Source: Candidatus Aenigmatarchaeota archaeon (GTDB taxonomy: Archaea; Aenigmatarchaeota; Aenigmatarchaeia; QMZP01; QMZT01). From it: a stretch of DNA of 64,000 nucleotides. Position numbers and translations under genes: made by a program. The notes beneath the pieces were generated by a model. The model did no database searches. It was not told where the DNA came from and saw only the letters and a list, made by a program, of their open reading frames with translations. Position 1 is the stretch's first letter; every line of letters starts with the position of its first letter. Location: NCBI GenBank assembly GCA_026397315.1, contig JAPLVC010000007.1, positions 102,378 to 166,377 on the forward strand, in the 5' to 3' direction. This document shows, one piece after another, positions 55,929 through 59,600 of the stretch.

Positions 55929-56480
55929 TCATTTCTTTTCCTTCAGTCCAAGCATGTCCGACTTGGTTATTATGCCGCATATCTTGCCCTTGCAGGCGAC
56001 GAGGACAGCCGCGTGCATCTCGAGAAGCGGGAGGATGATGTCCACCCTGTCTCTAGCGTCGACCAGCGGGAACGTCTCTTCTATGATGTCCTTCGCCTGC
56101 AGCCGCTCGAGATGCCTGTCCATGTTGTGCAAAAGCGTTTCCTCGCTTATGCCGCCAATCTGCCTTCCCTTGTCAATGACAGGCAGCTGGGAGAAGCCGG
56201 ACGTTTTCATTATAGCTATAATTTTCTTAACCGGGGTGTCCGGCCTCACGAAAATCACGCGGCTCATTATGTCCGCGCACGTCTTTGACTTTCTTTCCCT
56301 GTCGGAAAGGACGAGCAGTATCTTGTTGACCGTCGATAGCCGCGGGTCGACCTTGCCGCCCTCTATCTTCGCCACGTGCGCCTGCGAGACGTCGGCGAAC
56401 TTCGCTACCTCCGTCTGCGATAAGCCGCGCTCCATGCGCAGTTTTTTGAGATATTCACCTGTTAGCATCTGAAGCTCCAT
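55929..56480 (-). CDS. XRE-HTH plus CBS-pair transcriptional regulator
   Basis: LSQTEVAKFADVSQAHVAKIEGGKVDPRLST followed by two CBS domains (FSQLPVID; GIITKSD). Confidence 0.92.
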   Translation of the reverse strand: MELQMLTGEYLKKLRMERGLSQTEVAKFADVSQAHVAKIEGGKVDPRLSTVNKILLVLSDRERKSKTCADIMSRVIFVRPDTPVKKIIAIMKTSGFSQLPVIDKGRQIGGISEETLLHNMDRHLERLQAKDIIEETFPLVDARDRVDIILPLLEMHAAVLVACKGKICGIITKSDMLGLKEKK

Positions 56481-56567
56481 TATTACCACCAGTTATAATT
56501 TTGAGCGATAAGATATAAAAATCAATATAAATAGAGTTGGTAATTATTCTATTCCATATGTGATAAT

Positions 56568-57458
56568 ATGAAATCTGTCGAAATCTCATCCGGTGCAGAA
56601 TTTTTGGCTGAATGGATAGAAGGACATCCTGCATATTTAAGTGATAAAAGCGTAAATGATATCATGGGGGCTACAATTCATCCAAAAAACAAGAAACGTA
56701 TGCTGCCGTTCATAAAATCGAATTTTGGAAAACTATCTGAGAGGGAAATTGCCAGGAGACTGGAAATAGGAAAAACGACCGTCAACAAATGGCGGATAGG
56801 GCTTGGATTAGAAATTAAAAAAAATACGGTGAATGAAAATTTCTTTAAATTATGGAACCCGGAAATGGCATATATTATCGGATACATTTTCGCGGATGGT
56901 AATATTAACTGGAAACCTGAGAAGTCATACAGAGCACTGACCATAACAGCAGCGGCTAAGGATGCGGAACATCTGGAAAGGATAAGATTGAATCTGAACA
57001 GCACCAGAAAGCTCACATATTCTGCGGATACAAACTCGTACCGGTTAATTGTGAACAGTAAAGAAATTTGCACGGATTTGATGAAAATTGGTCTGTGCCC
57101 AAAAAAATCATTAACGATAAAATTTCCAAATGTTCCGGAAAAGTTTCTAAGCCACTTTATCAGAGGGGTTATAGACGGGGATGGAAACGTAAGATATGTA
57201 AAAAGGGAACGAAGTCCCTACTTTGAAATAACCATATCTTCAGGTTCCAAAGCTTTTTTAATAGAAATGGCGAAGAAAATTGCATCGAAAGGGATTGGGG
57301 GCAACGTAAGAAAAACGGGAAAAAACGTGTACATATTGCAATACGCCTGCACGAGGGGCCTAACTCTGGCAAAATGGGTTTATGATAATGATAGCCTTTG
57401 TCTAAATAGAAAATATCAGCAATATAAAATAGCATTAGGCGAAAAAGGGAGGTGGTGA
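56568..57458 (+). mobile_element. Free-standing double-motif LAGLIDADG homing endonuclease with N-terminal HTH
   Basis: AYIIGYIFADG and HFIRGVIDGDG motifs, HTH LSEREIARRLEIGKTTV, and C-terminal LNRKY. AT-rich. Real start may be 56664. Confidence 0.88.
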
Positions 57459-57460
57459 GC

Positions 57461-58625
57461 TTGAAGAGACATTTCTTCACTTCGGAATCAGTAACCGAAG
57501 GGCATCCCTGACAAATTGTGTGACCAGATATCGGATGCTGTACTCGATGCGATATATAAGAAAGACCCTAACGCAAGGGTCGCATGCGAATGCGGAACAA
57601 AAAACGGAGGTGTGATGGTTTTCGGTGAGATAACCACGTCTACCTATATAGACATTCCTCTTGTCGTCAGGGAAACTATAAAAGACATAGGATATACGAA
57701 ATCCGAATACGGTATAGAACATGAAACTTGCACCGTATGGGTCCAGATAACTGAGCAGAGCCCGGACATCGATCAGGGCGTCTCGGAAAACAAGGGCACG
57801 CACAAGGAACAGGGAGCAGGCGACCAGGGCATGATGTTCGGCTACGCGTGTGACGAAACGCCGGAGCTAATGCCGCTTCCTATAACACTGGCACACAAGC
57901 TCGCCATGCGCATGGCCGAGGCCAGGAAGAAAGGCGAGATAAAATGGATGCGACCAGACGGCAAGACGCAGGTTACCATAGAATACGACGAGCAAGGCAA
58001 GCCGCTTAGGGCGGATACTATTGTAATAGCCACGCAGCACGACGAAGATGTGAGCCATGACACGATAAAAAAAGAAGTGATAGAGAAAATAATAAAACCC
58101 GTTTGCGGAAAATGGCTTGACAGTGAAACCAAATTCCACATAAACGCAACGGGTGCATTCGTGCGCGGCGGGCCATACGCGGACGCAGGCGTGACCGGAA
58201 GGAAAATAATCGTCGATACATACGGCGGCATCGGACGTCACGGCGGCGGCGCTTTCTCAGGCAAGGACCCGTCTAAAGTCGACCGCTCTGCAGCCTACAT
58301 GGCCAGATACATTGCGAAGAACATAGTCGCCGCTGGAATCGCGAATAAATGCGAGATTCAGCTTGCATACGCAATAGGTTATCCGGAACCTGTCTCGATC
58401 TATGTCGACACGTTCGGTACCGGTAAGATACCTGACGAGGAAATATGCACGCTCGTGAGAAAACATTTCCCTCTGAAGCCTGCTGGTATAATAGAATATC
58501 TTAAGCTCAGGAGGCCGATATACAGGAAGACGGCCGCATACGGCCACTTCGGCAGGAACGACCCTGACTTCACGTGGGAGAAAACGGACAAGGCGGCAGA
58601 ACTCAAGAAGGATGCTGGCCTTTGA
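57461..58625 (+). CDS. metK: S-adenosylmethionine synthetase (bacterial/eukaryal type) encoded in two frames joined by +1 at CCC-TGA (57506-57511)
   Basis: SD GGAGGTG then TTG 57461 gives [16 protein letters not shown]. The +1 frame continues [13 protein letters not shown]...GAGDQG...[11 protein letters not shown]...[16 protein letters not shown] with no other lesion. Confidence 0.93.
57497..57512 (+). promoter_or_regulatory. Candidate programmed +1 frameshift cassette GAAGGG-CAT-CCC-TGA-C
   Basis: Same layout as prfB AGGGGG-UAU-CUU-UGA-C. A CCC to CCU slip is synonymous (Pro). Confidence 0.5.
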
Positions 58626-58703
58626 TTTTCACACCTTTGTTTTAATTTTTATTTTCTACACTGTCAGAGGAAAGTTTAAAAATTAGGCATGCGAATAAAT
58701 CGT

Positions 58704-59600
58704 ATGGAAGAAAAGATTCTTGAAAATTACATAAAAGCCGGCAGGATATCCGGCCAGATAAAAGCGGAAGTCCTGCAGACGATAAAACCCGGCATGAAGA
58801 TTCTCGAATTAGCGGAGTTCATAGAGAAGCGCACTCTCGATCTGGGCGGCAAGCCCGCGTTCCCTGTTAACATCGGCATAAACGACATCACTGCACATTA
58901 CACGCCAAAGGCGGATGATGCGACCGTCATAAAGGCCGGCGATTTAATCAAGATAGACCACGGAGTCCACGTGGACGGCTGGGTGGCAGACATGGCTTAC
59001 ACATATTGCACGGATAAGAACGAGATGATAAAAGCCGTGGAGCACGCTCTCAATGAAGGCATTAAAGCCATAAGGCCGGGCGTTAAAATCTCCGAGGTAA
59101 GCCGGGCAATAAACGACGCCGTCACTTCAGCGGGGTTTGGCGTTGTGGTGAATCTCACGGGCCACGGGCTCGGCCAGTATGTGATACACGGGCCGCCGAC
59201 GATTCCCAATGTCAAAAACGAATCTGCCGATGTTTTGAAAGAAGGCGACGTCATTGCGCTGGAGCCTTTCGTGTGCGAGAAGAACGGCTATGTAAAAGAA
59301 TCCGAGCCTTACGAGATTTATTCTTTCATGCAGCCTAAGCCCGTCCGCCTTCCTGAGGCGAGAGTGATTCTCGACACAGCAGGCAACGAATACATGGGTA
59401 TGCCTTTCTGCAAGAGATGGCTCGTGAAAAAAGGCATTTCACCTTTCAAGATTTCCTTCGCCCTCAGGCAGCTTGAAACAAATGAGGCACTCAAAAGTTA
59501 TCCTGTTCTCAAGGAAAGAAGCGGCATGAAAGTGGCGCAGGCAGAGCATACGATAGTGGTCGCTGAAAAGCCCAGCGTGATAACCAGGGCACCGGAATAG
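58704..59600 (+). CDS. map: Type II methionine aminopeptidase
   Basis: PAFPVN, AHYTP, KIDHGVHVDG, NLTGHG, ALEPF and AQAEHT motifs. Confidence 0.95.
   Translation: MEEKILENYIKAGRISGQIKAEVLQTIKPGMKILELAEFIEKRTLDLGGKPAFPVNIGINDITAHYTPKADDATVIKAGDLIKIDHGVHVDGWVADMAYTYCTDKNEMIKAVEHALNEGIKAIRPGVKISEVSRAINDAVTSAGFGVVVNLTGHGLGQYVIHGPPTIPNVKNESADVLKEGDVIALEPFVCEKNGYVKESEPYEIYSFMQPKPVRLPEARVILDTAGNEYMGMPFCKRWLVKKGISPFKISFALRQLETNEALKSYPVLKERSGMKVAQAEHTIVVAEKPSVITRAPE

Follow-up and report, generated by a model that had tools for sequence, protein, structure and literature searches.

The metK locus and its interrupted reading frame

The window, by which we mean the whole 64,000-nucleotide stretch of Candidatus Aenigmatarchaeota archaeon DNA that was analyzed, carries a gene for S-adenosylmethionine (SAM) synthetase (methionine adenosyltransferase, MAT; metK) that is interrupted close to its 5′ end. 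The features of the locus are listed in Table 1. As an earlier, sequence-only reading of this DNA had described, a Shine-Dalgarno (SD) sequence and a TTG codon open a frame of 16 codons, which ends in the residues EGHP and stops at CCC-TGA. Within the cassette the P-site codon CCC occupies 57506-57508, the shifty stop TGA occupies 57509-57511, and GAC (Asp) is the codon read in the +1 frame. The same reading held that skipping one base restores an intact enzyme, and this was borne out: when any one base of 57506-57509 is dropped, the result is an open MAT of 387 amino acids that ends at 58625 and contains all three MAT Pfam domains. The N-terminus encoded in the window contains KRHFF, and its own clade has KEKILL.

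Table 1. Features of the metK locus, in window coordinates
Feature	Position	Strand	Remarks
HTH+CBS host gene	55929..56489	-	Left neighbour of metK, divergently oriented and conserved
Double-motif LAGLIDADG homing endonuclease ORF, intact	56568..57458	+	PF14528; metK SD falls in its final codons
Degenerate copy of the metK EGHPDKxCDQ codons	56619..56648	+	Reads EGHPAYLSD; 15/20 invariant positions, centre altered
Shine-Dalgarno GGAGGTG of metK	57448..57454	+	Inside the endonuclease gene, at its 3′ end; 16S tail found in source genome
metK codons 1-16, zero frame	57461..57508	+	TTG start at 57461; element-supplied
Frameshift cassette GAA GGG CAT CCC TGA C AAA	57497..57515	+	Also the putative, disrupted endonuclease target
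metK body, +1 frame, 371 codons	57510..58625	+	Intact bacterial-type methionine adenosyltransferase
Methionine aminopeptidase (M24)	58689..59600	+	Right neighbour, conserved in in-frame relatives

A sequencing error had been named as a possible cause of the break, and exact contig matches in two samples reject it. A 32-kb Logan contig from run X1 (depth 23), which may be the source sample itself, shows 0 differences from the window over 56000-57844. The second sample, X6, belongs to the same study, and its contig matches 57439-57721 with neither a difference nor a gap. It is thus confirmed that the break in metK is real and is no assembly error. As to whether this is the only MAT gene, no other was found in the source genome of 1.05 Mb, which is 91% complete: the bacterial-type MAT has a single match there and the archaeal-type MAT (PF01941) was not found.

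Recurrence of the extra base in other genomes

To look for the same break elsewhere, a pattern with one extra base between the Pro and Asp codons was used, with an extra A, C or G in place of T as the control. The extra-T pattern was found in 24 GTDB genomes compared to 2 for the control. Both control matches read CCC-G-GAC, one of them has a truncated body, and the two look like assembly errors. A second pattern, anchored upstream, matched 34 GTDB genomes, or 32 once a chance match and a fragment were removed, and 73 metagenome contigs; no match was found in viral contigs. The break predicted to recur in the metK genes of relatives is therefore present at the same codon in 32 other GTDB genomes, and the recurrence of the extra T is far beyond chance. 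The hosts of frameshifted metK belong to the Aenigmatarchaeota, Nanoarchaeota and Iainarchaeum (DPANN) and to several groups of Patescibacteria. Matches that were excluded came from indel-rich long-read assemblies (L072, L082, L096 and L098), fragments (L060 and L080) and chance (L058). In the four long-read assemblies, homopolymer error mimics CCC-TGA and inflates the pattern counts.

A census of the window's phylum was also made, in which 135 metK 5′ ends were picked by protein similarity and not by the presence of a break. Fifteen were frameshifted, 13 had a mini-intron of 21-32 nt at the same codons, and 107 were uninterrupted. The mini-intron loci of the census are L154, L163, L170, L177, L188, L196, L202, L203, L220, L222, L223, L238 and L242, and further ones are L259-L266 (except L261), L272 and L273. 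Their hosts are genomes of the Aenigmatarchaeota phylum, Micrarchaeota, Woesearchaeota and genomes labelled Methanosarcinales, and they show bulge-helix-bulge-like arms at the Asp-Lys codons.

Codon constraint and decoding at the shift site

The codons around the break were compared between 75 non-redundant frameshifted alleles and 105 in-frame alleles. The Pro codon was CCC or CCT in all 75 frameshifted alleles versus 42 of the in-frame ones. The neighbouring codons were also enriched: GGG (66/75 versus 38/105), CAT (70/75 versus 63/105) and GAC (71/75 versus 81/105). Third positions of the flanking Ser, Val, Thr, Lys and Asp codons, a few codons to either side of the shift site, were variable, so the expectation that the shift site would stay fixed while nearby synonymous sites diverge is in agreement with the data. 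The slippery codon is CCU in most relatives and CCC in the window.

The enzyme downstream of the break is maintained. The metK body was full-length in 78 of 81 complete frameshifted bodies, and the median dN/dS between frameshifted sister pairs, some of which may have gained the T separately, was 0.07 compared to 0.057 for in-frame pairs, with dS up to 2.2. Conservation and dN/dS together indicate that the full-length product is needed. With the recurrence, the codon constraint and this purifying selection, the earlier caveat of a recent null mutation was discarded. Translation from a downstream start was likewise rejected, because no start codon is conserved after Asp-Lys, where ATT, ATC, GTA or GTC, none of them a standard start codon, is often found. 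Re-initiation past the stop would also cost MAT its catalytic His, Asp and Lys.

The shift site itself is of a known type. CCC_UGA is a shifty stop in E. coli pheL, in Listeria phage tail genes and in some antizymes, with an efficiency of 15% in pheL and about one third of that for CCU_UGA (PMC3082878). CC[C/U]-[C/U] sequences are slippery, and loss of m1G37 raises +1 errors at them approximately 8-fold in E. coli (PMC4519876). By analogy with this slippage, the peptidyl-tRNA-Pro on CCC would pause at UGA-C and slip by one base, after which Asp-tRNA would read GAC and full-length MAT would be made. The strict combination of CCY and a stop codon is what re-pairing of peptidyl-tRNA-Pro predicts. 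The recurrence of the break, the constant CCC/CCT codon and the purifying selection make a programmed +1 frameshift very likely, and we hold with high confidence that metK is decoded in this way; the corresponding proposal of the sequence-only reading is strongly supported.

The likeness to the prfB cassette that the same reading had pointed out stands only in part. The shifty UGA-C, the 3-nt spacer and the purine run are present, but the SD pairing is no better than in in-frame controls: the GAAGGG run pairs with the anti-SD of the source genome at -3.6 kcal/mol, and the in-frame alleles reach -3.9. An internal SD of the prfB type, placed 3 nt before the slippery codon, is absent in the window and in class 1 alleles and is present only in CPR class 2 (ACG GAG GGG, mostly followed by CCC), where the internal SD is strong (-10 kcal/mol). 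No conserved 3′ RNA stimulator was seen downstream of the shift site (fold z -1.5).

Association of the frameshift with an upstream LAGLIDADG endonuclease

The distance between the HTH-CBS gene and the Gly codon of metK is about 140-155 nt in in-frame relatives versus 1010 nt in the window, which corresponds to an insertion of approximately 0.86-0.88 kb. The intact LAGLIDADG ORF is a patchy insertion beside one conserved gene, metK. Its true start is likely ATG 56664, as in homologues. Relatives of the endonuclease were found by an alignment-based scan, where a single-sequence scan gave none, and phage records contained only distant relatives (~30%). Around the element, sigma-70 scans gave no more than chance matches. 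In a related population (run X3, record 17) the CBS gene lies about 130 nt from the metK body without an endonuclease, apparently as a naive allele.

Upstream of metK, an endonuclease gene or its 3′ tail was present at 45 of 70 frameshifted alleles versus 1 of 101 in-frame alleles. In the held-out subset, which comprised alleles that had not been used for the models, the endonuclease or tail was found upstream in 17 of 42 frameshifted loci. The T is still kept in the 39 of 70 frameshifted alleles that have no intact endonuclease. Two endonuclease families lie upstream of frameshifted metK, a PF14528-type family and, in the CPR class, a PF03161-type family, and the two are only about 30% alike, locally.

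On the tree of enzyme bodies, frameshifted alleles repeatedly lie next to in-frame ones, among them that of the window's same-genus neighbour (L002), and 13 changes are needed for 15 frameshifted alleles, compared to 12-15 for shuffled labels, and monophyly of the frameshifted alleles was rejected on a 36-row subset (p-AU 2e-39). On the endonuclease tree, the frameshift-linked endonucleases group loosely (3 changes). No clear revertants to the in-frame state were found. The frameshift allele is mobile: its occurrences are dispersed across the metK tree and go together with the upstream LAGLIDADG endonuclease. In seven other loci (L071, L084, L101, L105, L119, L156 and L159) the metK bodies are 617-828 amino acids long and probably contain inteins, which suggests that metK is targeted by further selfish elements.

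Altered codons at the putative target, and target-like boxes

When the search was started from the endonuclease in GTDB genomes, 26 of 26 evaluable close homologues lay directly upstream of metK, and none of the distant homologues did. The EGHPDKxCDQ codons behind the 26 close homologues, which are the cleavage target as predicted from sequence, carried the extra T in 6 cases, a mini-intron in 9 and amino-acid changes in 11, and were unmodified in none. The nine mini-introns have a bulge-helix-bulge fold by inspection, and their removal restores Asp-Lys. The motif is unmodified in 65 of 105 census alleles, so that substitutions are common (38%) without an endonuclease. Among the relatives of a Woesearchaeota genome, the motif was unmodified in 17 of 26 endonuclease-free alleles and in 0 of 4 with an endonuclease or its remnant. 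Given how common substitutions are in the absence of the endonuclease, and as kin are not independent, p=6e-5 overstates the link between endonuclease and altered motif, which we take as supportive rather than as proof. One in-frame allele (L027, genome G044) has an intact endonuclease and a motif changed to PGHPDKIAD, and its endonuclease lies on the tree between the frameshift-linked and the substitution-linked ones.

A degenerate copy of the same codons is found before the endonuclease (Table 1), 45 nt ahead of the likely Met codon and overlapping a TATA-like TATTTA. Of 35 loci, 8 have the same box between -41 and -47, compared to 0 of 163 control windows. In the PF03161 family, 9 of 15 loci have a copy of the right half whose position is exactly -33. 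By inspection this copy falls within a sigma-70-like promoter, and it scores at least 10/12 in 7 of the 9 loci versus 1 of 297 control windows. The boxes before both families point independently to the EGHPDKxCDQ codons as the target. A host-like metK 5′ stub precedes the endonuclease in 6 other loci, which indicates insertion into the metK 5′ end with a replacement start being supplied. Stubs and boxes were scored by motif tests, and a whole-window PWM test was mostly uninformative. The box is a putative operator, through which the endonuclease may repress its own gene, and/or a remnant of the original metK 5′ end. The -45 box could be no more than a decayed stub, a point against the homing model set out below.

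At the shift site (57506-57514 in the window, where the codon is CCC), class 1 alleles with CCT contain TTGACA, which matches the sigma-70 -35 hexamer perfectly, and the class 2 box before the endonuclease has an equivalent TTGATA as its apparent -35. This likeness is a possible origin of the extra T in bacteria.

A probable homing element with a proposed one-base substitute for an intron

The explanation that we favour, and that we consider probable on the sequence comparisons above, is that the +1 frameshift is the immunity allele of a homing element. The LAGLIDADG gene would have been inserted at the 5′ end of metK together with an SD of its own and a substitute 5′ end for the gene. The endonuclease is predicted to cut naive metK at the GHPDK codons, and repair would copy the element into the cut gene. 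Since a rebuilt metK would recreate the EGHPDKxCDQ target, the target must be broken. The extra T would move the two half-sites one base apart while the ribosome still makes an unchanged active site, and in this manner it may do the job of the intron in collaborative homing and confer immunity to cleavage. The T is often retained after decay of the endonuclease, plausibly because it protects against an enzyme that still circulates. The persistence of the T in the majority of alleles without an intact endonuclease, together with the lack of clear revertants, counts against this model to the extent that immunity alone may not explain it. Among the earlier caveats, that of an endonuclease repair scar comes nearest to this explanation: its link to the endonuclease stands, but a maintained immunity allele would take the place of a one-off scar.

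The sequence-only reading had preferred a SAM sensor, in which low SAM would lead to less m1G37 on tRNA-Pro or less methylation of release factor, and hence to more slippage and more MAT. Such a sensor could also be the later domestication of a frameshift that came in with the endonuclease. We find this unlikely. The effect of m1G37 loss cited above is in its favour, as are the Trm5-family gene and the aRF1-family genes of the source genome and the persistence of the T in endonuclease-free lineages over dS > 1; the logic parallels that of prfB and antizyme. The analysis gave no positive evidence for SAM-responsive feedback, and several observations argue against it. The break is patchy, with in-frame sisters within the same genus, and it goes with a mobile endonuclease; members of that family are also paired with introns or substitutions instead, so that interruptions other than a frameshift are interchangeable with it; the enzyme itself requires Pro at this position; there is no conserved 3′ stimulator; and m1G37 is a stable mark on a long-lived tRNA. 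In addition, SAM-I riboswitches are kept upstream of two frameshifted metK alleles in CPR genomes (L031:3249-3363 and L038:2272-2368, - strand). In L031 the endonuclease lies between the riboswitch and metK. The retention of the T after loss of the endonuclease does leave room for domestication, that is, for an immunity frameshift kept in endonuclease-free lineages because slippage at CCY-UGA-C rises with falling SAM-dependent methylation. This is unlikely, but if true it would mean that SAM synthesis in archaea and CPR bacteria is under a feedback that needs no riboswitch.

It is also conceivable, though improbable, that a functional frameshift is merely co-converted with the element, confers no immunity and has nothing to do with a target that lies elsewhere. 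Linkage alone cannot show function, and the loose grouping of the frameshift-linked endonucleases is what descent from a single event would give. Against this, the same T is carried by two distinct endonuclease families, no element precedes an unmodified motif, the target-like boxes copy exactly the EGHPDKxCDQ codons, and a costly hitchhiking frameshift should revert.

Removal of the extra base at the RNA level (transcription slippage, editing or splicing), or a quadruplet suppressor tRNA-Pro, is very improbable. Archaeal relatives do have splice-type mini-introns at the same place, but the site lacks a long homopolymer, a single base is too little for a bulge-helix-bulge intron, and the hosts from the CPR are bacterial. 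As for a suppressor, the GGG isoacceptor of tRNA-Pro was not located in the source genome because many tRNA genes have introns, and the only tRNA-Pro seen (CGG; C7 111564-111632) has a normal 7-nt loop. That CCY and a stop always occur together at the site fits tRNA re-pairing rather than either route. Most tRNA genes of the source genome contain introns, several of them at non-canonical positions.

A pseudogene, an assembly error or re-initiation past the stop has almost no likelihood left, since the pattern is mimicked by the excluded long-read assemblies and fragments but the exact match in two samples, the recurrence, the dN/dS of 0.07, the intact bodies and the codons after Asp-Lys all speak against it.

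Comparison with known systems and significance

The metK site resembles prfB (RF2) in its shifty UGA-C stop, in the 3-nt spacer, in a purine run ending in GGG and in the need for a shift to obtain the full-length product, and the internal SD of the CPR class is equally strong (-10 versus -8.7 kcal/mol for prfB). In contrast to prfB, where the slippery codon is Leu CUU, metK has Pro CCY; the archaeal class, the window's allele included, has a weak SD; the metK allele is mobile and endonuclease-linked; and MAT is no release factor, which means that there is no autoregulation by RF. The CCC_UGA shifty stops (PMC3082878) share the same shift site, but in metK this site falls within a motif that belongs to the active site of a housekeeping enzyme, occurs in archaea and CPR bacteria, and is conserved between phyla.

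Homing by free-standing endonucleases, either collaborative or intronless, is known from T7-like phages, a cyanophage and the T4 seg/mob genes (PMC10448857, PMC2988022). As in those systems, the endonuclease gene lies outside the coding sequence and adjoins a conserved gene, in which the putative target would be broken in donor alleles, and the metK mini-intron alleles fit collaborative homing directly. Unlike those systems, the metK element resides in a chromosome and provides an SD and a substitute 5′ end for the gene, and the interruption in the window is one base removed by recoding, with no spliced intron; as there is no intron, the window falls outside collaborative homing in the strict sense. 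The autorepression of I-TevI through an operator (PMC2988022) is similar in that a degenerate copy of the homing site lies over the promoter region of the endonuclease, with 15/20 positions there and 15/20 invariant positions in the window. I-TevI, however, is a GIY-YIG enzyme, and the window has a LAGLIDADG enzyme and a putative operator. The archaeal fucA1 gene is also an interrupted chromosomal gene expressed by frameshifting, but by a -1 shift on a heptamer (PMC8211752). The same source, a 2021 review of archaeal recoding, gives +1 frameshifting in the portion consulted only for a halovirus, adds a predicted magnesium chelatase case with its direction unstated, and includes there no chromosomal +1 case in archaea (PMC8211752). 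In the open-access literature, no report of a metK frameshift or of a metK-linked LAGLIDADG gene was found.

The break in metK is real and probably represents a new form of shifty-stop frameshifting, linked to a homing element. A chromosomal housekeeping gene of archaea would thus have a programmed +1 frameshift that is conserved and shared with CPR bacteria. This would also provide a specific way for recoding sites to originate and spread, namely a selfish nuclease that carries a one-base stand-in for an intron. The three alternative solutions at one site (frameshift, mini-intron and substitution) would make the evolution of interrupted genes directly testable. In practical terms, approximately 1 in 9 of the bacterial-type metK genes sampled in the phylum (15/135) would be mis-annotated as truncated or dead, in addition to the 13 with a mini-intron, and such errors would distort the metabolic reconstructions of DPANN archaea and CPR bacteria.
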